Assembly (NCBI GenBank): GCA_944382925.1 | Contig: CALWNX010000025.1 | Coordinates: 1 to 51,460 of the forward strand | Length of the DNA stretch: 51,460 bases | DNA from: an uncultured Clostridia bacterium | GTDB lineage: Bacteria > Bacillota > Clostridia > Peptostreptococcales > Anaerovoracaceae | Direction: 5' to 3' | Shown: in pieces, positions 8,338-51,460 of the stretch | Layout: each line of letters starts with the position of its first letter | How positions within the stretch are numbered: the stretch's first letter is position 1 | Made by a program: the position numbers and the translations under genes | The notes under the pieces: generated by a model | Database searches by the model: none | Seen by the model: the letters and a program-made list of their open reading frames with translations, nothing else | Told to the model about the DNA's origin: nothing

Positions 8338-8361
8338 CGGACAGGAGGGCAAGTATCTGAT

Positions 8362-9276: not shown

Positions 9277-9332
9277 ACGGCAGGAAACCGAGATTTCCGG
9301 GCAAAGACTGAGAATTAAGGAGAATGATACTG

Positions 9333-22800: not shown

Positions 22801-22817
22801 GATAGGAGGCGAAACAA

Positions 22818-33567: not shown

Positions 33568-33683
33568 AAGCTGTTCCCCTTTAAACTGTATATGTAAAAA
33601 TAAATAATTTTGCATATTTTAATAATAACATTATGGGTGTATTATAATACAGTAAAAAAATTATTGCAAGCGAGGACATGACA

Positions 33684-34268
33684 ATGAATGACAGCAAGAG
33701 AAAAATGAACGGAAACGACAGGACCGGAATTCTGGTGATGACGGCGCTGATGATCTGCCTGGTGATGGTCGCCACCCTGAGCATCAGGATTCCCAGTCCG
33801 TTTACGCAAGGATACGTACATCTGGGAGACACGATGGTGTTCCTCTCGGTGCTGCTTTTAGGCAGAAATCGCGGCGCGCTGGCAGCCGGCCTCGGCTCGG
33901 GTCTGGCTGACGTGGTCGGCGGCTATGTGGCCTACGCGCCCTTTACTCTTGTGATCAAGGGGCTGATGGGCTTCATCATGGGCGCCTTCATCGCCGCCTG
34001 CCTCAAAAAACAAAAGCACCACGCCAGGATCGGCTCGGTGCCTGTAATAGAGATAATCGGCATGGTGCTGGCCGGGATCGAGATGGTCATCGGCTACGCG
34101 CTGGTCGACGGAATGCTGGCCGGAAACCTCATCACCGGCTTTCTGGGCGCGCCTTTTAACGTCGGCCAGTTCGTGGTGGGGCTGATTCTGGCCACGCTGC
34201 TGGCGATGGCGCTGTATAAGACGCCGGCCAGAAAATACTTCGTCTATCGCCTCGACGAAATCAAATAA
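33684..34268 (+). CDS. ECF transporter S component (vitamin-type substrate-capture subunit)
   Basis: ~194 aa with 5-6 TM helices (GYVHLGDTMVFLSVLLLG, GSGLADVVGG). Divergent from the MocR regulator. The ATG at 33684 has better SD spacing than 33678. Confidence 0.7.
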   Translation: MNDSKRKMNGNDRTGILVMTALMICLVMVATLSIRIPSPFTQGYVHLGDTMVFLSVLLLGRNRGALAAGLGSGLADVVGGYVAYAPFTLVIKGLMGFIMGAFIAACLKKQKHHARIGSVPVIEIIGMVLAGIEMVIGYALVDGMLAGNLITGFLGAPFNVGQFVVGLILATLLAMALYKTPARKYFVYRLDEIK

Positions 34269-34280
34269 GCGGGTCGCTGA

Positions 34281-35423
34281 TCAGACCAGGCCGTACTTTA
34301 CCAGAAATCTGGCCGCGGCCAGCTGCTGCGAAAACAGGCGCACGAGGCTGCGGCTGAGGAAAAGACTGCCCGCGCCTTTTTCCTTCAGATTGTCGGCGAT
34401 GAGAAAGCAGATGATCTGCGCGTTGGAAAGCTCCCGCAGCCGCCTGATGAGACCGGCGGTGCCGGGGATATTTAAAGGATCGCGCTTGAAGCCTGCGATC
34501 GTACCCTCAAGCTGCTTGCGGGCCGGCAGACAGACGGCGGCAAGCTTTTCCAGAAACAGCTCCCTGGTGTAGATCAGCGCCGGATCGAGGCCGAAGACAT
34601 AAGCAGCGGCGTCAGCCAGCTTTACGTCGGCCTTGCCGAAAGCGCCGGCGGCAAAGGTATAGTAGCTGCCGGAAAAGATGCCCAGCGCTTTCATCGCTTC
34701 CAGATAACCAAGGCGCATGATGCGTTTTGAATTGTGTACATCAAAGATAAGCGTGCTCCCCAGCTCCCACTTTGACTCGACAACGGTCAGGTTTGGAGCT
34801 TCTTTGAGCGGCTGACTGTTCAGGATGCCAAGAGCGTTGAGCTTGACGGCGATCACGCGTCCGGCGCCTTTTGCCAGCGCCATACCGACCGGCAGCACAT
34901 CGGCGTAGCCGCCGTCGATATAGTCGCGCCCGTCTATTTCATAGGCGTGCAGAGCCGGAAACACCGAGGAGCTGGCCATGATGTAGTCGATCAGGCGGCC
35001 GCGCGGAATATCCTCGCGAAAGAGGCGGTGCGGCTTAAGCCCCAGCTTTTCCACCACCACCAGACCGTACTCGATCGGTGAACGGCGCACCCTGTCCTCG
35101 TCGATATATTTTTCCAGCAGCTTCTTGAGCCCGCCGGCGCTCACGCCGCCCCGCAGGATCACTTCCCGCGCGTAATCAAGCGGCTGACCGCCCTCCGGCA
35201 CGTCAAAGACCATGTGCGTCTCGATTTCCCGCCACAACGCGATGGTGGCCTCAAGATCCCCCTGGCAGACCATGGCGCCGTTGATCGCCCCTACGGACGC
35301 GCCGGTGACGATGTCGATGCCGGTTCCCGTTTCTGCCAGCGCCTGCCAGACGCCGGCCTCATAAGCCCCGCGGGAACCGCCGCCGCTGAGAACGAGGGCG
35401 GTCTTTTTGTGTTCATATGCCAT
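34281..35423 (-). CDS. patatin-like phospholipase family protein
   Basis: Starts at MAYEHKKTALVLSGGGSRGAYEAGVWQAL (oxyanion GGGxRG), with GASVGAING (GxSxG) and a DGG motif. AAAGGAG SD. Confidence 0.85.
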   Translation of the reverse strand: MAYEHKKTALVLSGGGSRGAYEAGVWQALAETGTGIDIVTGASVGAINGAMVCQGDLEATIALWREIETHMVFDVPEGGQPLDYAREVILRGGVSAGGLKKLLEKYIDEDRVRRSPIEYGLVVVEKLGLKPHRLFREDIPRGRLIDYIMASSSVFPALHAYEIDGRDYIDGGYADVLPVGMALAKGAGRVIAVKLNALGILNSQPLKEAPNLTVVESKWELGSTLIFDVHNSKRIMRLGYLEAMKALGIFSGSYYTFAAGAFGKADVKLADAAAYVFGLDPALIYTRELFLEKLAAVCLPARKQLEGTIAGFKRDPLNIPGTAGLIRRLRELSNAQIICFLIADNLKEKGAGSLFLSRSLVRLFSQQLAAARFLVKYGLV

Positions 35424-35559
35424 GATGCGCTCCTTTCTCTTACTATTTAATATATCCAAAAGGCTACCAAAAATCTACTGAAAATGTTATAATATACATG
35501 CCGTCGCGCGGCCGCCCAAAAGAGGCGCGGCCAAAAGAGGCGGCAGAAAGAAGGAGTTT

Positions 35560-36291
35560 ATGGATAGGAGATTGCAGGACATCCTCAAAAAATCAAGCTC
35601 GGTCGTGTTTTTCGGCGGCGCCGGAGTTTCCACCGAAAGCGGTATTCCTGATTTCCGCTCGGAAAAGGGGCTCTACAAGGCCCGGCAGGAATACGGCTAC
35701 CCGCCGGAGGAGATCCTTTCGCGGACTTTTTTTGACCGCCACACGGAAATATTTTTTGATTACTATAAAAAGAACCTGATCTATCTGAACGCCCAGCCCA
35801 ACAAGGCGCACAGAGCGCTGGCGATGCTGGAGAAAAACGGCCTGCTCAAGGCGGTCATCACGCAGAACATCGACGGTCTGCATCAGAAAGCGGGCAGCCG
35901 CAAGGTCTACGAGCTGCACGGCAGCGTCCTGCGCAACTACTGCATGGACTGCGGCAAGTTTTATGACACCGCCTATATCATGGATGAGGCTAACTGCCGC
36001 GGCGGCATACCGCGCTGCCGGGAGTGCGGCGGCATCGTCAAGCCGGACGTGGTGCTCTACGAGGAAAGCCTCGACACTTCCTGCCTGACGGGGGCGGTAG
36101 AAGCGATCGAAAGAGCCGAAACGCTGATCATCGGCGGCACCTCGCTGGCCGTTTATCCGGCGGCAGGTTTGATAAGCTATTTTCGCGGGAATAATTTAGT
36201 GTTGATAAATAAAGAGCCGACGCCTTACGACAGCAGGGCGGATCTGGTGATAAACGACTACATAGGAAAGGTTATGGAAATAAACGAATGA
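35560..36291 (+). CDS. cobB: NAD-dependent protein deacylase (Sir2/CobB family)
   Basis: 243 aa. GAGVSTESGIPDFRS, QNIDGLH, and a Zn ribbon (CMDCG...CRECGG). Confidence 0.9.
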   Translation: MDRRLQDILKKSSSVVFFGGAGVSTESGIPDFRSEKGLYKARQEYGYPPEEILSRTFFDRHTEIFFDYYKKNLIYLNAQPNKAHRALAMLEKNGLLKAVITQNIDGLHQKAGSRKVYELHGSVLRNYCMDCGKFYDTAYIMDEANCRGGIPRCRECGGIVKPDVVLYEESLDTSCLTGAVEAIERAETLIIGGTSLAVYPAAGLISYFRGNNLVLINKEPTPYDSRADLVINDYIGKVMEINE

Positions 36292-37052
36292 ATATTTTAG
36301 TAGCAAACGACGACGGCATCAAGGCCCGCGGCCTGGCGGAGCTGGTCAGGGCTCTTGCCGGCGCCGGCAATGTTTACGTGGCTGCGCCCGATTCGCAGCG
36401 CAGTGCCAGCAGCCATGCGCTCAGCGTCAACGATGAACTCACGATGACAAAGGTGGATTTTGCCGGGGCGGCCATGGCCTTCAAGGTGAGCGGCACGCCG
36501 GCGGACTGCGTCAAGCTGGCGCTTTATGTGCTGCGCAAAAAGGGCATCGACATCGATGTCGTCTACTCCGGCATCAACCACGGCGGCAACCTCGGCACCG
36601 ATACCATGTATTCTGGTACTGTATCGGCGGCGGCCGAGGGGCTTTTCAACGGACTGCCGGCCGTAGCCGTTTCCGTCAACGACCACCAGGCTGCGTACTT
36701 TGAAACCGCCTGCCGCCTGGCGCTTTCCGTGCTGCCGCACGTGCTGCAGGATAAGGCCAGACTGGGCGTGGTGAGCATCAACACGCCGAACCTGCCGCCA
36801 GAGCAGATTCGCGGCGTAAAGACAGCCGTGCTCGGCCCGGTCAAGTATCACGAATGGTTCAACGTGGTCAGAGACGAGGGCGAGAAGGTCACCTACAGCT
36901 ATTCCGGCACGCCGAAAAACATGGACTGCTGGAGCGCGGAGACGGACGCGCGCCTCGTGCGCGAGGGCTATGCGACGATCTCTTCCGTCAAGTACGATCA
37001 GAGCGACGCAGAAGGAAACGCCGTCATTGAAAAGTGGGAGCTGGAGCTCTAG
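36288..37052 (+). CDS. surE: 5'/3'-nucleotidase SurE
   Basis: 254 aa. MNILVANDDGI N-terminus and SGINHGGNLGTDTMYSGTVSAA. Start overlaps the cobB stop (ATGA). Confidence 0.9.
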   Translation: MNILVANDDGIKARGLAELVRALAGAGNVYVAAPDSQRSASSHALSVNDELTMTKVDFAGAAMAFKVSGTPADCVKLALYVLRKKGIDIDVVYSGINHGGNLGTDTMYSGTVSAAAEGLFNGLPAVAVSVNDHQAAYFETACRLALSVLPHVLQDKARLGVVSINTPNLPPEQIRGVKTAVLGPVKYHEWFNVVRDEGEKVTYSYSGTPKNMDCWSAETDARLVREGYATISSVKYDQSDAEGNAVIEKWELEL

Positions 37053-37084
37053 GCCGCGGCAGATTTTCAACAGAGGAGGTAAAA

Positions 37085-37639
37085 ATGAGCGAGATCATAA
37101 GATTCACTAAAGAGGATACAATACTTGTCATCATAGATATGCAGGAGCGGCTGCTGCCGGCCATGTGCGAGCGCGAGCGCACGGAGGATCACACCCTGCG
37201 GCTGGTGCGCGGGCTCAATGTGCTGGGCGTTCCCAAGCTGGTCACCACGCAGTACGCCAGGGGACTGGGGCAGACGGTTGAAACGCTGGCCGCAGAGCTT
37301 GCAGACTGCCCGATCTTTGACAAGACGGCTTTCAGCGCCTACAAAGACGAGGCTTTCCGCGCGGCTCTGGAAAAGACCGGCCGCAAAACCGTAATTCTCA
37401 GCGGCGTGGAGGCGCACGTATGCGTGCTGCAGACCGCGCTCGATCTGATCGAACACGGCTACCGGGTGGCGCTGGCCATGGACTGCGTCAGCTCCAGAGC
37501 GGCCGAAAGCGTGCGCATAGCCGAAAAGACGCTGATGGCGGCAGGCGCCGTGCTGACGAGCTGCGAGAGCATTCTCTTCGAGCTTCTGGGCAGCGCTAAA
37601 GCGCCTGAATTCAAACAGATTTCTGCGATAGTAAAATAG
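37085..37639 (+). CDS. isochorismatase-family hydrolase
   Basis: Starts at MSEIIRFTKEDTILVIIDMQ (GAGGAGG SD). VILSGVEAHVCVLQTALDL contains the catalytic Cys motif. Confidence 0.8.
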   Translation: MSEIIRFTKEDTILVIIDMQERLLPAMCERERTEDHTLRLVRGLNVLGVPKLVTTQYARGLGQTVETLAAELADCPIFDKTAFSAYKDEAFRAALEKTGRKTVILSGVEAHVCVLQTALDLIEHGYRVALAMDCVSSRAAESVRIAEKTLMAAGAVLTSCESILFELLGSAKAPEFKQISAIVK

Positions 37640-37646
37640 GGGTATC

Positions 37647-38594
37647 ATGGTATTAGCGAACGACTTTGACAATTTGACAGATAAAGATATAGAACTTCTG
37701 AACACTTACTTTGACGGCTTTGACTATCAGTCGTCGAGCCACACTTTTCTGGCCAACTACATCTGGCGCAACACGCACAAGCTTTCCTGGCAGATCGTGG
37801 ACGGCTATCTTTTCGTGGCCGGCCTGGGAAACACCGAGCCGGAGGAAGAGGAGTATTTTGCTTCCTTCCCGCTGACTTGCGATGGCAGCTATGAGCCGCA
37901 GCGCGTGCGCACGGCCGTCGCCAAGGTGAAGGAGATTTTCGCCGGCAAGGGGCAGGAATTTCACATGGGACTGGTGCCCGCTCCGCTGGTGCCTGCCTTT
38001 CGGGAAGCCTTCGGTGGCGAGGCGGAGCTGACGCACGACCGCGACGACGACGATTACGTTTACCTCAAGAGCGATCTGGTGACGCTGGGCGGCCGCAAGC
38101 TGCATCAGAAGAAAAACCATCTCGATTATTTCCTGCGCAACACGGAATTCACTTACGAGGAAGCGACGCCGGAGATGGTGCCGGAGATCATGGATTATGT
38201 CTACAGCAAGAACGAGTACAAGCTGGGCGAAACGCCGGAGGAGTGGAAGACGATCCTGGAGATGGAGACGGTCGCCATCGGCGAATTGCTCAAGTTCGTG
38301 GGCAAGGGCCTGCTTTCTGGTGTGATCAGGATCGGCGGCAAGATCGAGGCGGTGACCCTGGGCGAATTTGCCCGCACGAACAGCCGCGAAACCGTCATCG
38401 TACACGTGGAAAAGGCCGACGACCGCATACGCGGGCTCTATCAGGCGATCAACAACGAATTCTGCAAGCGTCTGCCGCCGGAGACGATCTACGTCAACCG
38501 CGAGGAGGACATGGGTCTTGAGAATCTCCGCCAGACTAAGCTTTCCTACAAGCCGTACAAGCTGGCGGAAAAATTCGCCGTCACTTTCAGATAG
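37647..38594 (+). CDS. DUF2156 (lysyl-PG-synthase C-terminal-like, GNAT fold) protein
   Basis: 315 aa. N-terminal pattern typical of the family (LNTYFDGFDYQSSSHTFLANYIWRNTHKLSW). Confidence 0.7.
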   Translation: MVLANDFDNLTDKDIELLNTYFDGFDYQSSSHTFLANYIWRNTHKLSWQIVDGYLFVAGLGNTEPEEEEYFASFPLTCDGSYEPQRVRTAVAKVKEIFAGKGQEFHMGLVPAPLVPAFREAFGGEAELTHDRDDDDYVYLKSDLVTLGGRKLHQKKNHLDYFLRNTEFTYEEATPEMVPEIMDYVYSKNEYKLGETPEEWKTILEMETVAIGELLKFVGKGLLSGVIRIGGKIEAVTLGEFARTNSRETVIVHVEKADDRIRGLYQAINNEFCKRLPPETIYVNREEDMGLENLRQTKLSYKPYKLAEKFAVTFR

Positions 38595-38685
38595 GTTCTT
38601 TCTGACGGCTGACCGCTGGCCGGCCGCCTGGCTGATTGGCCGTCGGCCGCGTGATTGTTAATTTAACTACTTTCGCCGTAGCCCT

Positions 38686-38713
38686 TTGAATTTAGACATC
38701 GTTATGATAAAAT
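38686..38713 (+). promoter_or_regulatory. candidate sigma-A promoter of the thiolase gene
   Basis: TTGAAT, 16-nt spacer, TAAAAT with an extended TG (TGATAAAAT). Confidence 0.4.
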
Positions 38714-38810
38714 AGCTATGATGGAAGTTTGCGGCGCCAAACTGGCGGCAGATTTCAGACAAAAGTATGGCATAAGGTAAATCAAATATTATCTTAAGGA
38801 GGATATACGA

Positions 38811-39989
38811 ATGAAAGAAGTTGTAATCGTAAGCGCTGTAAGAACACCTATGGGCAGCTTTGGCGGGTCACTGAAGAATGTTCCTACCAGAACGCTGGGA
38901 GCCATCGTTATCAAAGAGGCTATCAAGAGAGCCGGCATCAAGCCTGAGATGGTTGAAGAGGTTATCATGGGTACGGTACTGCAGGGAGCCCTGGGCCAGA
39001 ACGTAGCCAGACAGATGACTCTTGACGCGGGACTGCCTAAGGAAGTGCCTGCGATGACTATCAATAAAGTCTGCGGTTCCGGTCTGAGAGCCATCGAGCT
39101 GGCTGCCCAGATCATCAAGGCCGGAGACGCCGACATCCTGGTTGCCGGTGGCGCTGAGAACATGTCCGCTGCCGCCTATGCGATCCCTTCCGCCAGATGG
39201 GGAGCCAGAATGAACGACACCAAGCTGATCGACATGATGACCAACGACGGTCTGACCGACGCTTTCTATCATTATCACATGGGCATCACTGCTGAGAACG
39301 TAGCTGAGCAGTGGGGCATCACCAGAGAAGAGCTGGACGAGTTCTCGACCGTTTCCCAGAACAGAGCTGAGGCTGCTATCAAGGCCGGCAAGTTCAAGGA
39401 CGAGATCGTTCCGGTAGAGATCCCGCAGAAGAAGGGCGATCCAGTCGTATTCGACACCGACGAATTCCCGAGATTCGGCACTACCATCGACAAGCTGGCC
39501 AAGCTGAAGCCTGCTTTCAAGAAGGACGGTATCGTAACTGCCGGTAACGCTTCCGGTATCAACGACGCCGGCGCTGCCGTAGTAGTAATGTCCAAGGAAA
39601 AGGCTGACGAGCTGGGCATCAAGCCGATGTGCAAGATCGTTTCCTACGCTTCCGCAGGCGTTGAGCCTTCCATCATGGGCGTAGGTCCTGTTCCTGCTTC
39701 CGAAAAGGCTCTCAAGAAGGCGGGCCTGACCATCAAGGATATGGATCTGGTAGAAGCTAACGAAGCCTTCGCCGCTCAGTCCCTGGCTGTTAGAAAGGAC
39801 CTCGGTCTGGACCCTGAAAAGACCAACGTTAACGGCGGAGCCGTTGCCCTCGGTCACCCGATCGGAGCTTCCGGCTGCAGAATCCTCATCACTCTGCTCT
39901 ACGAGATGATCAAGAGAGATTCCAAGTACGGCCTGGCCACCCTCTGCATCGGCGGCGGCATGGGAACTTCCCTCATCATCGAAAGATAA
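38811..39989 (+). CDS. acetyl-CoA C-acetyltransferase (thiolase)
   Basis: 392 aa. [19 protein letters not shown], active-site [33 protein letters not shown]. Confidence 0.95.
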
Positions 39990-43159: not shown

Positions 43160-44794
43160 ATGGCTGACAATTTTATTCAGGAAATCATCGAAAAAGACCT
43201 GCAAACAAAAAAATACGGAGAAAAGGTGCACACGCGCTTCCCGCCGGAGCCGAACGGATATTTGCATATCGGACATGCCAAGTCGATATGCCTTAATTTT
43301 TCCACCGCAGCCAAGTACGGCGGCAAGTGCAATTTGAGATATGACGATACCAATCCTGTCAAGGAGGATGTCGAATACGTCGACGCCATCGAGGAGGACG
43401 TAAGGTGGCTGGGCTTCGAGTGGGATCAGCGCCTGTGGGCCTCGGACTACTTTGAGCAGATGTACGAGGCGGCTGTCGAGCTGATTAAGAAAGGGAAGGC
43501 TTTCGTCTGCGATCTGAGCGGCGAGGAAATCAGGGCTTACCGCGGCACGCTAACCGAGCCGGGCAAGGAGAGCCCGTACCGCAACAGGAGCATAGAAGAA
43601 AATCTCCGCCTTTTTGAGGAAATGAAGGCCGGCAGATACGGCGACGGCGAGAAGGTTCTCCGCGCCAAGATCGACATGGCCTCGCCTAATATCAATATGA
43701 GAGATCCTGTCATCTACAGGATCGCCCACGCTTCGCACCACAACACCGGCGATAAATGGTGCATCTATCCGATGTACGACTTTGCCCATCCGATCGAGGA
43801 CGCCATCGAAGGCATCACGCACTCGATCTGCACGCTGGAGTTTGAAGACCACCGTCCGCTTTACGACTGGGTGCTCAGAGAGGTGGGCTGGTGGCCGCAG
43901 CCGCCGCAGCAGATCGAATTCGCCCGCCTTAACCTGACCAACACTGTGATGTCCAAGCGCTATCTCAAGGCGCTGGTCGAAGAAGGGGCCGTTGAGGACT
44001 GGGACGATCCGCGCATGCCTACCATCGCCGGCATCCGCCGCCGCGGCTATACGCCGGAGGCAGTGCGCAATTTCTGCGAAGCCATCGGCGTGGCCAAGGC
44101 CAACAGCACGGTCGACATTTCCCTGCTCGAACACTGCGTGCGCGAAGACCTGAAAGAAAAGGTGGAGAGCCGCAACGTCATCTTCGACCCGATCAAGGTC
44201 ATCATCACCAACTATCCGCCGGGTCAGTCGGAGCTCTGCGAGATCGAAAACAACGCGCAGGCGCCGGAAATGGGCACGCGCCAGGTCAGCTTCTCCCGCG
44301 AGCTGTGGATCGACGGCGCAGACTTCATGGAAGAACCGCCGAAGAAATATTTCCGCCTCTTCCCGGGCAACGAGGTGCGCCTCAAGGGCGCGTATTTCGT
44401 GACCTGCACGGACTTTGTCAAGAACGAGGACGGCAGCATCAAGGAAATCCACTGCACCTACGACCCGGAGACGAGAAGCGGCAACGGCTTTGAAGGCCGC
44501 AAGGTCAAGGGCACGATCCACTTCGTAGACGCCGCCACGGCCGTACCTGTCACGGTGCGTCAGTTCGACTACCTGTTCGTCGAAAACGAGCAGGGCGAGA
44601 TGGTCGCCAATCCTGATAACATCAAGGTTTCAACCGCCTACGCCGAAGCCTCGCTGGCCGCCGCCGAAAAAGGCGAGCGCTTCCAGTTCTTCCGCCACGG
44701 CTATTACGTGGCCGACAGCAAGCTGCACACTTCTGAGAAGCCGGTCTTCAATGAGATCGTCGGCCTCAAGAGCTCGTGGAAGCCGGCCAAATAA
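43160..44794 (+). CDS. glnS: glutaminyl-tRNA synthetase
   Basis: 544 aa. HIGHAKS and VMSKR class I motifs, with overall GlnRS length and architecture. Confidence 0.95.
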
Positions 44795-44820
44795 GCGTTC
44801 TTCATTGTAAATACGGCCCG

Positions 44821-44946
44821 CCGCGCCGCGCCGCTGACAAAAATTGCGCCCGGCCGAAGCCGGCCGCGCTCGGATGAAGCCGCCTGCGCCGCGCCGCTGA
44901 CAAAAATTGCGCTCGCCGAAGCCGGCCGCGCCGCGCCGCTGACAAA
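44821..44946. repeat. GC-rich repeat array containing CGCGCCGCTGACAAAAATTGCGC (2 full copies + 1 partial)
   Basis: GCTGACAA starts at 44833, 44896 and 44938. Intervening CCGAAGCCGGCCGCG blocks are also repeated. Confidence 0.75.
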
Positions 44947-44989
44947 TTTTGAAATTTTTTTGAAAAATGTCACGAAATTCAGGTAAAAT

Positions 44990-45038
44990 CGGCTGAATTC
45001 TTTTGAAAAAGACTAAAAACTGTAAAAATTCGCTTATT
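44990..45038 (+). promoter_or_regulatory. second copy of the CGGCTGAATTC-N19-CTGTAAAAATT motif, ~340-380 bp upstream of P1
   Basis: CGGCTGAATTC at 44990-45000 and CTGTAAAAATT at 45020-45030, compared with 47856-66 and 47885-95 (spacers 19 and 18 nt). Confidence 0.35.
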
Positions 45039-45371
45039 TTTTAAAAAATATCAGCAAATTCGTCGATTTTGCTGACAAAATTTTAGAAAAAACATATTTT
45101 TTACAACTTTCACTTCAGGTTACCCTGATCAGAGCACCATTTCTGGCCATTTGCTGACAAATTTCGGGACAATATGAAAAAAAGTCAGCTCTGCCGCGCC
45201 CGTCTGCTGACAAAACCGGCGCAGGCCGCACCCGGCCGCCGCGCCCATCTGCGGCACCCGGCCACACCCCGCCGCGTCCGGCCGCGGCTTCGGAAAGAGC
45301 CTGCAGAAAAATGAAATTATCCATGCAAAATCGCAGCGCAAGCCACTTGGCATGCAATCCGCGTTTATAAT

Positions 45372-45388
45372 TGGCATGTAATTTGCAT
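45372..45388 (+). promoter_or_regulatory. sigma-54 (-24/-12) promoter P1
   Basis: TGGCAT-GTAAT-TTGCAT matches TGGCAC-N5-TTGCW. GG (45373-74) and GC (45385-86) are at canonical spacing. Lies 73 nt upstream of the ATG at 45460. Confidence 0.75.
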
Positions 45389-45459
45389 TTATTAAATTGC
45401 AAGAACTAAAATCAACATACAGCTACCTTTGTTATCAGAGGTAAATCAGGAGGTAAAAA

Positions 45460-46404
45460 ATGAACAAAGAAAAATTTGACATCGATGCGATCCCTGGTGA
45501 AAGATGGTTTCCGAAAGAGAGCACATTTGAAGAAGACATGACGGAATACTGGGGCGATTTCGGCGTCTGCTCCGAGGTAGACACGCTCAGGGCGGTGCTG
45601 CTGCGCCGGCCGGGCAAGGAAATCGAACATTTCGACGCTCGCGAGGTACGCTTTTCCGATGAACCGATAGATGTAGAACTGATGAGAAAACAGCACGACG
45701 AGGTCGCTCAGATATACAGAGATTTCGGCGCCAAGGTTTATTACGTGGAAAACCAGCGCGAGGACAGGCCGAACGCTATTTTCTGCCGGGACCTCATGTT
45801 CATGACCCCGGAAGGCGCGATCCTGACCAGACCTGCCATGGCGGCCAGAAGAGGCGAGGAAAGATATATTGCCGAGGCGCTGGGAAAGATCGGCGTACCG
45901 ATCGTGAGAACGATTTCCGGCGACGGCATGTTTGAAGGCGCCAACGCCATGTGGGTAGACCGCCACACCTGCGTGGTATCGACTGGCAGCCGCTGCAACA
46001 GAAGCGGCTTTGAGCAGGTGAAGTACGAGCTCGAAAGAATGGGCGTCGAGGTATGGCACATGCAGCAGCCTTACAGCAACATCCATATCGACGGCCTCAT
46101 GAGCCCGGCCAGCAACGACACCATCCTCATCCATGCGCCGCAGGTGCCTTATGACATCGTGGACATGCTGAAAAAGAAGGGCTATAAGATACTGGAAGCC
46201 CCTTCTAGAACCGAAGTCAGAGAAACCTTCGCCTGCAACTTCGTAGCGCTGGAGCCGGGCTACATCCTGATGCCGGAGGGCAGCCCTCGCACGCGCGAGC
46301 TGCTGGAAAAGAACGGCATCAAAGTCAAGACGGTCAATATTTCCGAGATCATGAAGGGCAAGGGCGCGCTGCACTGCATCACCGCTTATCTTAAGAGAGG
46401 TTAA
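45460..46404 (+). CDS. guanidino-group-modifying enzyme superfamily protein (short arginine deiminase / amidinotransferase / DDAH-like)
   Basis: 314 aa. FCRDLMF (Asp), NIHIDGLMS (His) and C-terminal GKGALHCIT (nucleophile Cys), arranged as in ADI/DDAH-fold enzymes. AGGAGG SD. Sigma-54 promoter 73 nt upstream. Confidence 0.75.
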   Translation: MNKEKFDIDAIPGERWFPKESTFEEDMTEYWGDFGVCSEVDTLRAVLLRRPGKEIEHFDAREVRFSDEPIDVELMRKQHDEVAQIYRDFGAKVYYVENQREDRPNAIFCRDLMFMTPEGAILTRPAMAARRGEERYIAEALGKIGVPIVRTISGDGMFEGANAMWVDRHTCVVSTGSRCNRSGFEQVKYELERMGVEVWHMQQPYSNIHIDGLMSPASNDTILIHAPQVPYDIVDMLKKKGYKILEAPSRTEVRETFACNFVALEPGYILMPEGSPRTRELLEKNGIKVKTVNISEIMKGKGALHCITAYLKRG

Positions 46405-46428
46405 GCGCAGCGGACAGGAGGTCAGGCT

Positions 46429-47850
46429 ATGCTCAGCAGATATGTAGAACAGCTTCTGAATATCTACAATTACATCGACGGGATCATCATTACCGACAAG
46501 GACGGATATGTCGAGTATTACAAGAATTTCCGCCCTGATTTGAACAACCTCAAGGAATCTGAGGTGCGCCGCAAGCATATCACGGAGGTCTATCCCGATC
46601 TGACTGAGGAAACCAGCAGCATTCTCAAGGTGCTGAAAACCGGCAAGCCTATCTCCAACGAATTTCAGGTGCTCAAGACCTTTAAGGGGCAGAGCATCAA
46701 CGCTATCAATTCTACCCTGCCCATCAGGCAGGACGACGAAATCATCGGCGCGGTAGATGTATCCCGCTACCTTGATCCGCCGTACCAGCGGCAGGACATC
46801 GTCATTTCCCTCAAGAAGAACGTCGCCGCCACCAACCTTTATACGGTCGACGACATCATCACCCATTCGCGGGAAATGGAGATGCTCAAGGAGCGCATTC
46901 CAATGGTAGCGGATACCGACTCTACCGTGCTGATCTACGGCGAAACCGGCACCGGCAAGGAGATGGTCGCGCAGTCCATCCACACCTCCAGCCGCCGCCG
47001 CGGTCATAAGTTCATTTCGCAGAACTGCGCCGCGATCCCGGCCAACCTGCTGGAGAGCATTCTGTTCGGCACCGTCCGGGGCAGCTACACGGGGGCGGAA
47101 AACAAGCCGGGGCTCTTTGAGGTCGCACACGGCGGCACGCTCTTTCTCGACGAGATCAACTCGATGGAAAAAAGCGTGCAGTCCAAGATCCTCAAGGCCA
47201 TCGAGGAAAAGCAGGTTACGCGCCTGGGCGGCTATGAACCGATCAAGACCGATGTCAAGATCATCTCGGCGATCAACAGCGATCCGCTCAAATGCGTGGA
47301 AGAGGGGCGCATCAGGAACGACCTCTTCTACCGCCTCAGCGTTGTGCAGCTCAACATACCGCCGCTCAGACGTAGGCGCGAGGACCTGTTCCACCTGGCG
47401 GACAGCTTTATCGCTGAATTCAACAGGAGCATGCACCGGGACATCATGGGACTTGACGAAGAGGTCAAGGAGCTTTTCAGCGCCTACGACTGGCCCGGCA
47501 ACGTGCGCGAGCTACGCAACATCATTGAGGGCGCCTTTAACGTGGCCGGCAGCCGCTTCATTCAGGTCGGCGACTTGCCTGCATACCTGACCAGAAGGCT
47601 CTTTTCGCGGCAGACGGCTGACTATCCGCAGGCGGGCCTGCAGGCGCAGAGCGGAAACGAACCGGAGACCTGCCTCACGCTCGAGCAGGCCGTGCAGCAG
47701 TACGAGCGGGACTTTATCCTGCGGGCCATAAAGGCCACGGACAGTCTGGTAGAGGCCGCCGCGCTGCTGGGGCTGAGCAAGCAGAACCTCAACTACAAGC
47801 TGCATAAGCTGGGCATCGGCAAGGAGGAAACGCAGCGGCCAGGCAAATAG
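46429..47850 (+). CDS. sigma-54-dependent transcriptional activator (PAS-like sensor + AAA+ + Fis-type HTH; RocR-like architecture)
   Basis: Walker A GETGTGKE, GAFTGA-variant GSYTGA, GGTLFLDEI, WPGNVRELRN, and C-terminal HTH (EAAALLGLSKQNLNYKLHKLGI). ~150-aa N-terminal PAS-like domain. Confidence 0.9.
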   Translation: MLSRYVEQLLNIYNYIDGIIITDKDGYVEYYKNFRPDLNNLKESEVRRKHITEVYPDLTEETSSILKVLKTGKPISNEFQVLKTFKGQSINAINSTLPIRQDDEIIGAVDVSRYLDPPYQRQDIVISLKKNVAATNLYTVDDIITHSREMEMLKERIPMVADTDSTVLIYGETGTGKEMVAQSIHTSSRRRGHKFISQNCAAIPANLLESILFGTVRGSYTGAENKPGLFEVAHGGTLFLDEINSMEKSVQSKILKAIEEKQVTRLGGYEPIKTDVKIISAINSDPLKCVEEGRIRNDLFYRLSVVQLNIPPLRRRREDLFHLADSFIAEFNRSMHRDIMGLDEEVKELFSAYDWPGNVRELRNIIEGAFNVAGSRFIQVGDLPAYLTRRLFSRQTADYPQAGLQAQSGNEPETCLTLEQAVQQYERDFILRAIKATDSLVEAAALLGLSKQNLNYKLHKLGIGKEETQRPGK

Positions 47851-47855
47851 GACTA

Positions 47856-47927
47856 CGGCTGAATTCACAAAGAAAATCCTGCATCTGTAAAAATTTTCTT
47901 TACTAATTCTGTAAAGATAGTTTTTAC
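47856..47927 (+). promoter_or_regulatory. candidate enhancer (UAS) for the sigma-54 activator upstream of P2
   Basis: CGGCTGAATTC (47856-66), then two CTGTAAA-N7-TTTAC dyads (47885-47903 and 47909-47927), roughly 95-120 nt upstream of the predicted start site. The first part is repeated upstream of P1. Confidence 0.45.
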
Positions 47928-47986
47928 CGGTACAGGATTTTTTTACTGTTTAAAGCTGAAAGCAGTCTGCATTATGGCTTTCAGGC

Positions 47987-48002
47987 TGGCATAAAATGTG
48001 CA
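47987..48002 (+). promoter_or_regulatory. sigma-54 (-24/-12) promoter P2
   Basis: TGGCAT-AAAAT-GTGCA. GG and GC are at the same spacing as in P1. Lies 42 nt upstream of the ATG at 48044. Confidence 0.6.
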
Positions 48003-48043
48003 ATAAGATTAAGATATAAAAACAATGCAAAGGAGGAAGCAAG

Positions 48044-49441
48044 ATGCCAACGTTAAATGACAAGAAAAAGAAAAAGCTCGCTTTTCCGAGCAGCATCCTG
48101 ATGCTGTTTATCATCATCGTCATTATCACGCTGCTGACCTGGATCGTTCCCGGAGGAAGCTATGAGCGCGTCCTCGATGAGAGCACCGGCCAGACGACAG
48201 TAGTACCGGGCAGCTTCGAGTACACCGAGAAAACGCCTGTAGGCCCATTCGACATGTTTGTAGCCTTGCCGAAGGGCTGTATACAGGTAGCGCAGATCCT
48301 CTTCATCATGATCTTCGCTTATTACTGGACTTATTCGGTAATGCAGTCGGGAGCTCTTTCCGCTCTGTTCAACCGGCTGCTGACGGGCAAAACCAAGGAA
48401 AACAAGTTCTTCATTCCGATCTGTATGACCGTCTTTTCCCTGGCCGGCTCGACCTACGGCGCCATGGACTCCGTCTGGGGTCTGATTCCTGTGTTCACGG
48501 CTTTGGCCATCGCGATGGGCTACGATGCGCTGGTAGGCGTCAGCATCACCGCCGTGGCAACCTTTACCGGCTTTGCCGCTGCGACTACCAACCCGTACAC
48601 GATCGCGGTCGCTCAGTCGATCAGTGAGCTGCCGCTTTATTCCGGCCTGGGCCTCAGATGGGTGGTATGGTTCGTATTTACAGGTACAACTATTCTCTTT
48701 GTCATGAGATACGCCTCCAAGATCAAGAAGGACCCGACCAAGAGTCTGGTATACGGACTTGACTATTCGGACTTCAAGCTGGACGACACGGTTGAGGAAT
48801 TCACCACCAAGCACAAGGTCATCCTCTTCGGCATGCTGGTAACCATCGGCATCATCGTCTGGGGTACGCTGGCGGCAGGTTGGTATCTGGATGAGATGAG
48901 CGCCACCTTTATCATTTCGGCCATCATCACCAACATCATCGCCGGCAAGAAGCCTGAGACCATGGTAGATTATCTGGCGACGGCCCTGGCAGGCATGGCC
49001 AAGGCGATGCTGGCGGTCGGCTTCTCGCGCGCCATCCTGGTTATCATCACCGAGGGCAACATCCTCGATACCGGTATCAACTTCTTCACCGGCTTCATGG
49101 AAGATATGCCGCAGTGGCTGGCAGGCGAAATGATGCTGGTAGTACAGAACATCATCAACTTCTTCATTCCTTCGGGAAGCGGTCAGGCGGCGGCCATCAT
49201 GCCTATCATGACCCCGATCGCAGACCTCGTGGGCGTGAACAGGCAGATCGCGGTACTGGCATACCAGTTCGGCGACGGCTTCTCCAACATGCTGTGGCCG
49301 ACTGCCTCCTGCGTAATCATGTGCAGTATCGCCAAGATTCCTCTGAACAAGTGGTACAGATGGTTCCTGCCGCTGTTCGGTATCTTCTTCGTCCTGCAGG
49401 TGATCTTCATCTTTATCGCTACGATGATCAACTACAGCTGA
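48044..49441 (+). CDS. YfcC-family transporter (DcuC-like fold; putative basic amino acid antiporter type)
   Basis: 465 aa with ~11-12 TM helices. N-terminus (KKKLAFPSSILMLFIIIVIITLLTWIVPGGSYE) is typical of YfcC proteins. Second sigma-54 promoter 42 nt upstream. Confidence 0.75.
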   Translation: MPTLNDKKKKKLAFPSSILMLFIIIVIITLLTWIVPGGSYERVLDESTGQTTVVPGSFEYTEKTPVGPFDMFVALPKGCIQVAQILFIMIFAYYWTYSVMQSGALSALFNRLLTGKTKENKFFIPICMTVFSLAGSTYGAMDSVWGLIPVFTALAIAMGYDALVGVSITAVATFTGFAAATTNPYTIAVAQSISELPLYSGLGLRWVVWFVFTGTTILFVMRYASKIKKDPTKSLVYGLDYSDFKLDDTVEEFTTKHKVILFGMLVTIGIIVWGTLAAGWYLDEMSATFIISAIITNIIAGKKPETMVDYLATALAGMAKAMLAVGFSRAILVIITEGNILDTGINFFTGFMEDMPQWLAGEMMLVVQNIINFFIPSGSGQAAAIMPIMTPIADLVGVNRQIAVLAYQFGDGFSNMLWPTASCVIMCSIAKIPLNKWYRWFLPLFGIFFVLQVIFIFIATMINYS

Positions 49442-49465
49442 TAAAACGCTCGAAAGGATTTCGCG

Positions 49466-50644
49466 ATGAAAGACGAAAAAGAATTGCGGGCCCGCCTCTT
49501 CGAGGCGCTGGCCAAGTTTGAAAAGGAAATATATGCGCTCAGCGATTTCATGGCCGCAAACCCGGAGCTGGGGAGAGAGGAGTTTAAGGCTTCGGCGGCG
49601 ATCGTGGAGCTGCTGCGCAAAAACGGGATTGAAACGGAAATTCCGTTCGATGGTTTTGAGACCGGCTTTTGCGGCCGCATCAATCCGGATAAGAAAAGAA
49701 GAGCCGCGCTTTTAGCCGAATACGACGCTCTGCAGGGCATGGGTCATGCCTGCGGACACTGCGCCAGCGGCAGCGCCAGCGTGTGGGCCGCCCTTGCTCT
49801 CAACGAGCTGCGCGATGAGCTCGACTTCGGTATCGACATTATCGGTACGCCTGATGAGGAACGCCGCGGAGCCAAGTGCTACATGGCTGACGATGGCATT
49901 TTCGATCATTACGATTTTGCCGCCATGGTCCACATGGGGCCGGTGAGCACCGTGGACGCCAAGATGATCGCGCTCGACGGCCTCAACATCAGATGGCACG
50001 GCAGAGCGGCTCATGCCGCCTCTGCTCCGCAGGAGGGCATCAATGCCTTCAATGCGGCCCGTCTCTTCTTTGACGCTGTGGACATGATGAGACAGCACAT
50101 TGTGCAGGAAGCGCGCCTGCACGGTTATCTGCGCAGCGCCGGCACGGCTGCCAACATCGTGCCGGATCTGGCCGAGGTCACTTTCCTGGCCAGAGCACCT
50201 AAGCGCAAAGATCTCAACGGCATTACCGCCTGGGTCAAAGACTGTGCGCAGGCAGCCGCCATGGCCACCCACGCGACGGTCGAGATCGAGCCTTCCGGCT
50301 TGCCGTTCCACGAGCTTTACATCAGCGAGGCCGGCCGCCGGCTGATGGAAGAGTGTTTCGCGGACCTGGGCATTGTCCCTGACAATGGAACGGTTGGCAT
50401 GACAGGCTCTTCCGACATCGGCAACGTGGATTATCACTGCCCTGCCTTCCATCCTATCATGGGTATCGGCCGGCCGTATCAGTGTCACACCGTTGAATTC
50501 GCCGAGGTCATGCAGACCGATGAAACGCATGCGGCCATCAAAAACGCCGCCAGCTATCTGCTGACCCTGTGCGCCAAGCTTTATGCAGATCAGGAGCTCC
50601 TTGCCGCGGTGCAGGAAGAGCACCGTGCATATAGAAACGCTTGA
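49466..50644 (+). CDS. M20-family amidohydrolase (aminoacylase/AbgA-HipO-like subgroup)
   Basis: 392 aa. MGHACGHCASG metal-binding motif, GTPDEE, and an HGRAAHAASAPQEGINA dimerisation-domain motif. Confidence 0.8.
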   Translation: MKDEKELRARLFEALAKFEKEIYALSDFMAANPELGREEFKASAAIVELLRKNGIETEIPFDGFETGFCGRINPDKKRRAALLAEYDALQGMGHACGHCASGSASVWAALALNELRDELDFGIDIIGTPDEERRGAKCYMADDGIFDHYDFAAMVHMGPVSTVDAKMIALDGLNIRWHGRAAHAASAPQEGINAFNAARLFFDAVDMMRQHIVQEARLHGYLRSAGTAANIVPDLAEVTFLARAPKRKDLNGITAWVKDCAQAAAMATHATVEIEPSGLPFHELYISEAGRRLMEECFADLGIVPDNGTVGMTGSSDIGNVDYHCPAFHPIMGIGRPYQCHTVEFAEVMQTDETHAAIKNAASYLLTLCAKLYADQELLAAVQEEHRAYRNA

Positions 50645-50701
50645 TCACCCACAATTGTATCAGGCAAAGCAATTTGCTTGTACATCTTTTTCTTGTAGTT
50701 A

Positions 50702-50735
50702 GCAAAGGGATGGCCTTGGGGCCATCCTTTTGCGT
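50702..50735 (+). terminator. intrinsic terminator after the M20 amidohydrolase gene
   Basis: GCAAAGGGATGGCC-TTGG-GGCCATCCTTTTGC stem-loop with a T-rich 3' side. Confidence 0.7.
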
Positions 50736-50887
50736 AGACTGTAGACAAATCCCCAAACAACTTCATTTGTGAATTTATCCGGGGGTGCTGGCTTTCTCTT
50801 CGTTTAATTGGTAAATGTTGTAGTTTTTTTGAAGATGTGAACTTCTGTTAGAGAACATATACAACTGAATACGGATTTGTCTGATGG
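50735..50887 (-). repeat. family-2 element, short (153-bp) internally deleted copy L, inverted orientation
   Basis: TAGACTGTAGACAAATCCCC plus the next ~75 nt align at ~85% with the reverse complement of 24118-24216. The other end is GGATTTGTCTGATGG (50873-87). Confidence 0.45.
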
Positions 50888-50888
50888 C

Positions 50889-50947
50889 AAGCACTTGCAA
50901 CTATCCGAGAAAAGAACGGATATATGCAGGTGCTTTTCTTTTTGAAA
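50889..50947 (+). terminator. second terminator-like hairpin after the short family-2 copy
   Basis: AAGCACTTGCA...TGCAGGTGCTT (11 bp including one G-U pair) with inner TATCCG/CGGATA. Followed by TTCTTTTTG. Confidence 0.45.
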
Positions 50948-51308
50948 AAATCAGAACACAGTGTCCAAAATCGGCTATCCGCACGGGCTGTAAGGTAGGG
51001 GGCAAGTCTGCCCATATGTACCTTGAAAACTTCACAGCAGCCGTCAGAGGGATACCTGCCGCAACGGACAGCAGGCGATGATATGAGCCTGCCCATTGCT
51101 TAATCCATGCACAGCATAGACAGTGAAAACGTCGCTTTGGGAAAGCGTGGAACCGTATGGAATGGCTGTGCTTACATATCCCCGTCCTTGTGGCAGGGAT
51201 ATAAAAAATTTTAAGGAGGTCGAATGCCTATGGACAAGTATGCAACAACCAGACGAAAGCGGAAGGAGGACACCCATGCAAAAGCTGAACATGAATATAA
51301 CTGAATTT

Positions 51309-51460
51309 CTAATTGTTTTGAAGCAATACTCGAACTGCTTGCGGCGTTTCTCCAAATCTCTGCTGAAAGATATGGTAGAAATTTGATACTCCATGATAGC
51401 CAACTGCTTTTGCGATGTCGCCAGTGGACATATCGCTTTTTTCAAGAAGCTCCAGAGCAA
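51309..51460 (-). CDS. AraC-family transcriptional regulator, C-terminal end only (continues beyond window)
   Basis: The minus-strand frame reads ALELLEKSDMSTGDIAKAVGYHGVSNFYHIFQQRFGETPQAVRVLLQNN*, the classic second HTH of AraC/XylS. Stop codon at 51309-51311. The track ORF 51044..51460 is in a different, non-homologous frame. Confidence 0.7.
   Translation of the reverse strand, partial: ALELLEKSDMSTGDIAKAVGYHGVSNFYHIFQQRFGETPQAVRVLLQNN

Follow-up and report, generated by a model that had tools for sequence, protein, structure and literature searches.

The 51,460-nucleotide (nt) contig CALWNX010000025.1 of an uncultured Clostridia bacterium, referred to below as the window, carries near its 3' end a locus of four consecutive genes (coordinates are on the + strand unless stated otherwise). 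These genes encode a short enzyme, here called D, with the pentein fold of guanidino-modifying enzymes, an enhancer-binding protein (EBP) of the kind that activates sigma-54-dependent promoters, a YfcC/DcuC-family carrier and an M20D-type metallo-amidohydrolase. Two sigma-54-type promoters, P1 and P2, lie ahead of the first and third genes, and a candidate enhancer lies between the EBP gene and P2. The features of the locus, with the basis on which each was recognised, are as follows.

45372..45387, + strand: P1, sigma-54 -24/-12 element TGGCAT-N5-TTGCA (TGGCATGTAATTTGCA); pattern match
45460..46404, + strand: D gene, A-type, 314 amino acids (aa), pentein-fold protein; open reading frame (ORF) list
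46429..47850, + strand: sigma-54 EBP gene, 473 aa; ORF list and profile matches
47887..47946, + strand: candidate enhancer (upstream activating sequence), tandem GTAAA-N7-TTTAC inverted repeats; pattern match
47987..48002, + strand: P2, sigma-54 -24/-12 element TGGCAT-N6-TGCA (TGGCATAAAATGTGCA); pattern match
48044..49441, + strand: YfcC/DcuC-family carrier gene, 465 aa; ORF list and profile matches
49466..50644, + strand: M20D-type metallo-amidohydrolase gene, 392 aa; ORF list and profile matches
50656..50733, + strand: pair of successive stem-loops following the M20 stop codon, where the transcription unit probably ends; folding

The four + strand ORFs lie where the initial annotation had placed them, and its gene identities are correct, the Pfam and NCBIfam domain assignments holding for each. 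The D and EBP genes are separated by 24 nt, as are the YfcC and M20 genes, and both gaps contain a ribosome-binding site, AGGAGG in the first (7 nt ahead of the EBP ATG) and AAAGGA in the second. The double hairpin 3' of M20 has a minimum free energy of -41.1 kcal/mol (z = -5.1), with a terminator-like site called at 50661-50680. Because of these short gaps with ribosome-binding sites and the stable hairpins after the fourth gene, the locus is probably organised as two sigma-54-type transcription units, a layout that had been proposed earlier and that is sound as far as sequence can show. A scan of 44700-51460 against Rfam gave nothing credible, hence no riboswitch. The 674-aa antisense ORF at 45412-47436 was set aside as a spurious product of the GC-rich coding sequence opposite it.

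P1 and P2 are the only two matches to the pattern TGGCAY-N6-TGCW on both strands of the window (45372 and 47987, both +); 0.65 would be expected, and two or more matches arose in 11 of 100 shuffles. A looser -24/-12 scan of the window added one further match, which is intragenic (13922). Both promoters are intergenic and on the coding strand, 72 nt (P1) and 41 nt (P2) before the start codons of D and YfcC. For comparison, 80 loci were obtained by a scan of species-representative genomes, homologues in them were counted by tblastn with the four window proteins, and 1.02 Mb of related loci was scanned with the pattern TGGYAY-N6-KGCW. This yielded 124 matches, of which 45 sites, in 39 loci, sit 18-182 nt 5' of D genes; the remaining matches include sites ahead of Amidohydro_3, APC, OppA and NhaC-like genes. 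The nearest relative, locus L005 (UMGS207), has TGGCACGACTTTTGCT at the position equivalent to P1, and promoters at the position equivalent to P2, after the EBP gene and the enhancer, occur in seven related loci. Because the same element recurs ahead of D genes in this way, a chance origin of the elements is further excluded, and the two sigma-54 promoters described previously can be regarded as real.

The 577-nt spacer between glnS and P1 (44795-45371) is rich in repeats: GCTGACAAA occurs six times, partly in the form of GCTGAC-N25-GTCAGC palindromes, and GC-rich 56-nt direct repeats are also present. A degenerate duplicate of P1, TTGGCATGCAATCCGCG, lies at 45347-45368, 24 nt 5' of P1, with a good -24 half and no TTGC -12 half. 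The spacer differs by an indel of ~86 nt in the same-species contig L003 and is wholly missing in L005, where P1 directly follows the glnS stop codon. The GCTGACAAA repeats were considered as an upstream activating sequence for P1 and were dropped, as they are not present in L005.

The candidate enhancer consists of perfect GTAAA-N7-TTTAC copies at 47887 and 47911 and a one-mismatch copy at 47930, in a 24-nt phase; the perfect copies lie 100 and 76 nt 5' of P2. There are four matches to the enhancer motif in the window, with 0.65 expected, and three of them fall in this array. Tandem palindromes with a spacing of N6 or N7 likewise occupy the interval from the EBP stop codon to the following sigma-54 promoter in related loci (L005, L010, L014, L019, L038, L045, L062, L071 and L082-84). 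Across the 1.02 Mb, 35 of 50 perfect GTAAA-N6/7-TTTAC sites lie within 250 nt after an EBP stop codon and none lies ahead of an EBP start. The region within 250 nt of EBP stops makes up ~1.6% of the sequence, which corresponds to a ~40-fold concentration of enhancer sites there. The array is taken as the candidate binding array of the activator. In L005 (10500-10690) the array is retained while P2 and approximately the first 30 YfcC codons are missing, reflecting either gene decay or a fault in the assembly of this metagenome-assembled genome (MAG).

Judged by its domains and motifs, the product of the second gene is a genuine enhancer-binding protein. Its first 135 residues form a PAS-like sensor, followed by an AAA+ domain and a C-terminal Fis-type helix-turn-helix (HTH), with Pfam matches to Sigma54_activat (208.8 bits) and AAA_lid_14 (78.9 bits). 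HTH_8 scores 19.9 bits against a cutoff of 22, and alignments to full-length NtrC, NifA and PrdR models reach the C-terminus. The Walker A motif is GETGTGKE and the sigma-54 contact loop GSYTGA, the commonest loop variant among related EBPs (38/62). The PAS domain reported earlier is sub-threshold in the window protein itself (PAS_4, E = 0.0044) and becomes recognisable through its orthologues, whose N-termini match PAS_4 in 20 of 25 cases (best 2.7e-7); a profile search with the sensor domain against PDB sequences gave no significant match. The best NCBIfam model is PrdR (NF041552), at 327.9 bits against a cutoff of 795, with the first 136 profile positions unmatched. The earlier description of the activator as RocR-like therefore needs amending, as its closest curated model is PrdR and not RocR, in a profile set that contains no RocR model.

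Enzyme D matches two Pfam families above their gathering cutoffs, arginine deiminase (ADI; 69.9 bits) and DDAH_eukar (62.5 bits), the latter named after dimethylarginine dimethylaminohydrolase (DDAH). When the AlphaFold (AF2) model of D was compared with solved structures by Foldseek, probabilities of 1.0 were obtained to Pseudomonas aeruginosa DDAH, P. aeruginosa ADI, NnhA, AGAT and ArgZ, with identities of 14-21%, E-values of 1e-12 to 1e-15 and query-normalised TM-scores of 0.61-0.74; SxtG was also among the matches. Since the E-values are so similar and identity reaches only 14-21%, D is a protein of the pentein fold, a five-fold beta/alpha propeller, without a close relative among the solved structures. 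Curated ArgZ/CtlX models were all missed by a wide margin (46.5 bits against a cutoff of 450 for arginine dihydrolase, 42.9 against 1025, and 21.4 against 334 for CtlX). These profile and fold results agree with the earlier assignment of D, at 314 aa against ~410 for ADI, to the guanidino-modifying fold. ADI, of ~410 aa in total, contains a helical insertion domain of ~85-90 residues. The spacing between the two blocks that align is 56 residues in D and 146 in P. aeruginosa ADI, from which it follows that the helical module of ADI is missing in D.

The FCRD, HID and GALHC motifs pointed out in the initial annotation exist, and the catalytic positions align with solved ADI and DDAH structures. 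Against P. aeruginosa DDAH, HMMER alignment pairs the residues of D (given first) as N105=D60, F108=F63, R110=E65, D111=D66, R130=R85, E159=E114, R178=R132, H209=H162, D211=K164 and C306=C249. With P. aeruginosa ADI (1rxx, chain numbers shifted by +3) the pairs are E159=E224, R178=R243, H209=H278, D211=D280, K301=R401, H305=H405 and C306=C406. The N-x-x-F-x-R-D motif of D, as read from its sequence, we take to correspond to Asn160, Phe163 and Asp166 of ADI. Where DDAH and ADI differ, D has the ADI-type Arg110 and Asp211 and not the Glu65 and Lys164 of DDAH, residues that in the P. aeruginosa enzyme give space to N-methyl groups. Cys306, His209 and Glu159 are predicted to be catalytic, Asp111 and Asp211 to bind the guanidino group, and Arg130, Arg178 and Lys301 to bind the carboxylate or act as a gate. 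These correspondences firmly predict that D is a Cys hydrolase of the pentein fold whose pocket resembles that of ADI and accepts an L-alpha-amino acid with an unsubstituted guanidino or ureido group. The term 'mini-ADI' is a fair structural description of D and makes no claim to membership of the ADI family.

D belongs to a large clade. The protein collection holds 1245 homologues, the best 120 all being at least 77% identical, and an exhaustive search against representatives gave 2741 clusters at E < 1e-3 and 175 at E < 1e-30, mostly of 300-330 aa. Their names are generic: 'amidinotransferase', 'arginine deiminase-related protein' or 'N-dimethylarginine dimethylaminohydrolase'. Carriers include Emergencia timonensis and Senimuribacter (three copies each), Ihubacter, Bacilliculturomica, Aminicella, Acidaminobacter and Sedimentibacter, in addition to many MAGs of Oscillospiraceae, Eubacteriaceae and Anaerovoracaceae; among the cultured carriers are Emergencia timonensis, Senimuribacter, Ihubacter, Aminipila, Acidaminobacter and Sedimentibacter. 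Two D paralogues occur in 48 of the 80 loci, an A type that is 72-93% identical to the window protein, a range that holds across families, and a B type that is 61-68% identical. Across 65 A-type and 39 B-type homologues the catalytic and substrate-binding residues do not vary, position 301 apart. Near the active site the two types differ at position 162 (N in A, M in B), 206-208 (SNI, GHA) and 301 (K or R in A; F, Y or W in B), and also at 179 and 259. Because they share catalytic residues and differ consistently on the pocket side, A and B are taken to be two enzymes whose specificities are related but distinct.

An EBP homologue is present in 56 of the 80 loci, and 44 combine it with two D paralogues. 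When the ORFs of the loci were clustered and recurrent clusters annotated, further partners of D emerged. An NhaC-type Na_H_antiporter protein of 563 aa is encoded in 23 loci, and a cytoplasmic M28 peptidase of 587 aa that includes a PA domain in 12. A 542-aa Amidohydro_3 protein and a polysaccharide-deacetylase-like protein occur in 10 loci each, an APC permease in 8, and Opp/Dpp ABC systems are also present. With E standing for the EBP gene, typical orders are E-D-D-M28-NhaC, D-E-D-M28-NhaC, D-D-Amidohydro_3-deacetylase-Amidohydro_3-E-E and Opp-E-D-D. The combination of a transporter, a metal-dependent amide hydrolase and D enzymes is thus a recurring theme, to which the window conforms with other components. 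The same arrangement with YfcC and M20 was found in L005 only among the 80 loci, so that the four genes do not form the conserved quartet suggested initially; the conserved units are D-EBP(-D) and YfcC-M20D(-pentein). Four Oscillospiraceae MAG loci (L068, L073, L077 and L078) have a single A-type D gene and no EBP nearby. Their D neighbours, as read from translations, are a purine nucleoside phosphorylase, an amidohydrolase resembling methylthioadenosine/S-adenosylhomocysteine deaminase, an MtnA-like isomerase, an M20 protein and a carboxyltransferase, which by eye look like enzymes of methylthioadenosine salvage.

The third gene matches Pfam DcuC (260.4 bits) and scores 292 bits against the YfcC equivalog NF008611, whose cutoff is 500. 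It is predicted to encode a YfcC/DcuC membrane carrier of the ArcD-like 'basic amino acid antiporter' type. The fourth gene exceeds the cutoff of the M20D model TIGR01891 (157.9 bits against 153.75) and also matches Peptidase_M20 and M20_dimer (34.5 bits). Its product, predicted to be an aminoacylase or dipeptidase, has the metal motif GHACGH, and its PDB matches are Staphylococcus aureus HmrA (3ram, 4e-54, residues 25-387) and 'Xaa-Arg dipeptidase' (8xzc/7yh4, ~1e-44). The contigs of nine M20 homologues were compared for the context of this pair, as follows (identity of M20 to the window protein, then the genes found together).

L085, L086, L087, L090, L091: 60-66%; YfcC, M20D, an ADI-like pentein of 284-291 aa and a second M20
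L088: 54%; sigma-54 EBP, metallo-beta-lactamase-fold protein, CitMHS/DcuC-type carrier (37% identical to the window YfcC) and M20D
L092: 55%; AbgT and M20D
L093: 51%; YfcC and M20D alone
L089: 50%; no carrier of the YfcC family and no pentein

The M20D proteins that are at least 60% identical are therefore linked with YfcC and a pentein in 5/5 loci, and no pentein is found below 60%; down to 51% identity, a carrier gene always adjoins M20D. In these five loci the regulators, encoded 5' of the operon, are of the GntR/FCD or AsnC type, and the second M20 has ~555 aa in four and 382 aa in L087. The YfcC proteins of L085-L087 are 54-60% identical to that of the window. L086, L090 and L091 add a 258-aa DDAH-like protein (NF045658, 402.7 bits against a cutoff of 450), and agmatinase-family genes lie near the L086 and L087 operons. 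The pentein proteins of these operons belong to other clades, 22-26% identical to D. This operon of GntR/AsnC regulator, DDAH-like protein (where present), YfcC, M20D, pentein and second M20 spans other anaerobes, one Synergistaceae genome included, and it looks like an undescribed guanidino or methylarginine pathway.

In Streptococcus suis, the ADI system includes ArcD, a DcuC-type carrier co-transcribed with the dipeptidase ArcT (PMC4129364), and it was suggested by the authors that ArcT supplies arginine from peptides (PMC4129364). In Clostridioides difficile, a lysine riboswitch precedes what seems to be an operon of yfcC and an M20D amidohydrolase gene (PMC11477304), a link of the pair to basic amino acids. 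On these comparisons YfcC-M20D is a separate cassette, habitually associated with pentein enzymes, and the quartet is a rare recombination of two modules sharing a logic of transporter, amide hydrolase and guanidino hydrolase. The recruitment of two pentein clades to the same carrier-hydrolase pair is the strongest argument for one pathway acting on a basic guanidino-type amino acid.

Several characterised systems resemble the locus in part. D shares with ArcA the pentein fold and the matches to P. aeruginosa ADI Glu224, Arg243, His278, Asp280, Arg401, His405 and Cys406, but it is shorter (314 aa against ~410), lacks the helical insert and scores far below the equivalog cutoff. Like the streptococcal arcD-arcT pair, the D gene sits with a DcuC/YfcC-type carrier and a metallopeptidase (PMC4129364); unlike the streptococcal system, it has no arcB or arcC nearby and is predicted to be under the control of sigma-54 and an EBP rather than ArgR, FlpS or CcpA-type regulators. 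Streptococcal ArcT is annotated as an Xaa-His dipeptidase, whereas the window enzyme is of the M20D type. P. aeruginosa DDAH (1h70/3rhy) is the best sequence and fold match to D, with a similar size, a Cys-His-Glu triad and two Arg residues for the alpha-carboxylate. However, identity is 19-21%, the DDAH models give 69-97 bits where their cutoffs are 340-450, Asp and Arg stand in D at the positions of Lys164 and Glu65, and D has an extra conserved N-terminal segment of 70 residues that resembles the ADI N-terminus (4bof).

In its regulation the locus is similar to the Clostridiales sigma-54/EBP operons governed by PrdR, OrdR and LeuR (PMC6615313), in which the EBP gene lies beside its target operon, a -24/-12 promoter is preceded by a palindromic upstream activating sequence, and the hosts are amino-acid fermenters. 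It departs from them in the family of the target enzyme, in an enhancer that is always downstream of the EBP gene, and in P1, a second promoter with no upstream activating sequence close to it. The regulon reconstruction of Nie et al. 2019 (PMC6615313) has no D-type regulon and no mention of amidinotransferase, dimethylarginine, M20 or citrulline. The C. difficile CD3100-3099 operon and those of L085-L087, L090 and L091 have an orthologous carrier-hydrolase pair (54-66%), which in the latter group is linked to a guanidino-modifying enzyme. These cassettes are controlled by GntR/FCD, AsnC or a lysine riboswitch and contain other pentein clades, while the window pair is connected with a sigma-54 promoter and with the D/EBP module. 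A full-text literature search found no description of the D clade, the quartet or the GntR-DDAH-YfcC-M20D-pentein operon, in keeping with the remark in the initial annotation that the quartet matched no described pathway.

The reading preferred here, to which a probability of about 0.5 is given, is that the four genes serve the use of a conjugated arginine-type amino acid. P2, with its proximal GTAAA-N7-TTTAC array, would drive the YfcC carrier and M20D, and P1 would drive D together with the activator, resulting in positive autoregulation; the activator would sense the imported compound or its product. The carrier would import arginine or, more probably, an arginine-type amino acid in a dipeptide or N-alpha-acyl conjugate, from which M20D would free the amino acid. 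In D, Cys306 would then attack the guanidino carbon, helped by His209 and Glu159, while Asp111 and Asp211 would hold the unsubstituted guanidinium and Arg130 and Arg178 the alpha-carboxylate. Ammonia would be released, leaving a citrulline-type product to be metabolised or exchanged elsewhere. This reading is supported by the resemblance of M20D to Xaa-Arg dipeptidase and HmrA, and by the other transporter-metallohydrolase pairs that D loci carry elsewhere. These pairs, with the pentein-linked cassettes, also strengthen the order of import, deacylation and deimination put forward earlier; the amidino transfer that had been offered as an alternative last step now appears least likely.

A number of observations weigh against this reading. 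D falls well short of the ADI equivalogs (TIGR01078, 69.8 bits against 489.1; NF002381, 76.1 against 414) and of those for DDAH (NF045658, 69.1 against 450; NF045660, 97.3 against 340; NF045659, 37.3 against 300). Its AlphaFold model has a predicted local distance difference test (pLDDT) score of 68 and a predicted TM-score (pTM) of 0.73, with active-site loops at pLDDT below 50, and in fold space D is about equidistant from ADI, DDAH, NnhA, AGAT and ArgZ. No characterised member of the D clade was found in the literature or in curated profile libraries. Neither ornithine carbamoyltransferase (OTC) nor carbamate kinase (CK) occurs in the window or in loci L001-L084 (OTC by motif scan), as had been reported for the locus before, and the B paralogue found in most genomes is missing from the window, which holds A only. 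A motif scan of the window and the fetched loci revealed no RpoN box; we infer that sigma-54 is present in the host. There is no GTAAA-N6/7-TTTAC enhancer near P1, even with one mismatch, and P1-type promoters, those of an A gene ahead of an EBP gene, have no array within 200 nt in any genome compared. As P1 lacks a proximal enhancer, its control by this activator is also something that we infer: P1 would be served either by the array ~2.5 kb downstream, or by another site or activator.

Other explanations differ in the substrate and chemistry assigned to D. D may be a DDAH-type methylarginine hydrolase that converts monomethylarginine or asymmetric dimethylarginine to citrulline and methylamines, with M20D freeing these substrates from host or diet peptides; the locus would then serve to scavenge methylarginines. 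The best curated profile is indeed the dimethylargininase model NF045660 (97 bits), P. aeruginosa DDAH gives the best PDB and Foldseek matches, and D is nearer to DDAH than to ADI in size. In addition, the YfcC-M20D cassette adjoins near-threshold DDAH genes in L086, L090 and L091, and in Mycoplasma hominis DDAH feeds citrulline into energy metabolism (PMC9301678). The NF045660 score is nevertheless under one third of the cutoff, and D is only 24-26% identical to the DDAH-like proteins of the cassette operons. In place of the DDAH-specific Lys164 and Glu65, D has the ADI-type Asp211 and Arg110, which should clamp an unsubstituted guanidinium. Overall, a methylarginine substrate is credible but rather unlikely. 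An arginine dihydrolase route independent of OTC and CK is a little harder to credit. Here D alone, in the manner of ArgZ or AstB, or with a second hydrolase would yield ornithine, CO2 and two NH3, YfcC would act as an arginine/ornithine antiporter, and ornithine would pass to Stickland fermentation. The missing OTC and CK genes would fit this route, as would the role of YfcC-type carriers as ArcD in streptococci and a stand-alone ArgZ-like C-terminal-domain protein at 15871-16968. Matches of D to arginine dihydrolase, ArgZ and CtlX are weak but real (E 1e-12 to 1e-4; Foldseek also finds ArgZ and AgrE), and the two intact paralogues of most genomes, differing at 162, 206-208 and 301, would suit two steps. 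On the other hand, the ADI and DDAH models outscore ArgZ and CtlX, A is the sole paralogue in the window, and the ArgZ-like gene is 30 kb off with no sigma-54 element. The M20 protein is moreover of the M20D type, which acts on N-alpha-acyl amino acids, the carbamoylase/allantoate amidohydrolase branch reaching E values of only ~1e-3 to 1e-4.

It is also conceivable, though improbable, that the two units do not form one pathway and that a generic YfcC-M20D cassette for basic amino acids or dipeptides has replaced an ancestral operon of D-B, peptidase and transporter behind the activator. The quartet is confined to this species and its nearest relative, where P2 and the 5' end of YfcC are deleted; in L088, L092 and L093, at 50-55% identity, YfcC-M20D stands by itself or beside unrelated genes, and the pair lies behind a lysine riboswitch in C. 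difficile. Yet in the window it is placed exactly behind a conserved enhancer array and a sigma-54 promoter, so that its regulator is shared with D, and its closest orthologues are all pentein-linked. Least of all does it seem that D is an amidinotransferase with a biosynthetic role, moving the amidino group of arginine to an acceptor amine, a function for which there is very little room. The public annotations of its homologues say 'amidinotransferase', Foldseek matches to AGAT, SxtG and HsvA are as strong as those to ADI, and D has the His-Cys motif of these enzymes. That motif is also found in P. aeruginosa ADI, however, and identity to amidinotransferases is 14-16%. The context is catabolic (sigma-54, transporters, peptidases, amino-acid fermenters), and no acceptor-related or biosynthetic gene is found in any locus.

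The surroundings of the locus bear on its origin. Upstream of it, at 32182-39989, is a block of genes for a GntR-aminotransferase, a small protein, patatin, SIR2, SurE, isochorismatase, an LPG-synthase-C protein and thiolase. In Anaerovoracaceae this block stands immediately beside E-D-D-M28-NhaC loci, and its sharing points to an Anaerovoracaceae affinity of the window organism. Recent horizontal transfer was considered and rejected, since the GC content of the locus is that of its flanks and the synteny block is common with Anaerovoracaceae loci. The locus looks like a local remodelling of an ancestral D/EBP locus, in which B and M28/NhaC would have been swapped for YfcC-M20D behind the retained enhancer and promoter. 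Divergence from the same-species contigs L001-L004 begins ~190 nt after the M20 stop codon; the segment 50836-51460, in which GC falls to 43-47%, is a strain-specific insertion or replacement boundary. Its - strand encodes the C-terminal end of an AraC-type HTH regulator, which ends near 51316 and runs off the window.

Elsewhere in the window, a 365-aa ArgZ-like C-terminal-domain protein is encoded directly 5' of a 506-aa Orn/Lys/Arg decarboxylase (15871-18511), with no sigma-54 element nearby; a link of this gene pair to ornithine or arginine metabolism is possible. Another pairing of a transporter with an M20 enzyme lies at 7402-14442, where a 492-aa M20 peptidase comes after a peptide ABC transporter of the Opp/Dpp type that comprises two permeases, two ATPases and a family-5 binding protein. 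A 540-aa Amidohydro_3 protein (26529-28151) is 47-52% identical to those flanking D-D pairs in other genomes; its gene is 19 kb from D, and what precedes it resembles a sigma-70 context and not a sigma-54 one. The window also has the whole Rnf cluster (RnfC, D, G, E, A, B) and a gene for an ApbE flavin transferase, at 18624-23684 and 30765-31868, as would fit an amino-acid-fermenting anaerobe.

Sigma-54-controlled amino-acid catabolic operons of Clostridia, pentein hydrolases and M20D/YfcC cassettes are all of known kinds. What is new is the clade of D enzymes, the constant linkage of this clade to a PAS-EBP with an enhancer downstream, and the modular exchange of transporter and hydrolase. 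As a tentative and rather doubtful extension, the A and B enzymes may together represent a new functional class of penteins in a widespread, so far undescribed catabolic system of amino-acid-fermenting Clostridia from gut and sediment, with a dedicated PAS-EBP, two sigma-54 promoters and one enhancer 3' of the activator gene. The substrates of such a system would be guanidino amino acids in conjugated or modified form, such as arginine that is methylated, glycated or bound in peptides and that stems from host or dietary protein. Exchangeable cassettes would set the conjugate, and P1 would be activated from the enhancer ~2.5 kb downstream. The existence of several cultured carriers makes the system readily testable.

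Arginine, together with derivatives such as citrulline, ornithine and methylarginines, is a major currency of nitrogen and energy in the gut and influences nitric-oxide biology in the host. Should D be a compact hydrolase of arginine or modified arginine, it would constitute an unrecognised entry to arginine catabolism, one overlooked by pathway predictors built on arcA, rocF or speA models. How sigma-54 modules are put to new use can be seen in the exchange of the downstream operon, and a fixed enhancer behind the activator gene, together with two sigma-54 promoters, offers a testable case of enhancer placement in Firmicutes.

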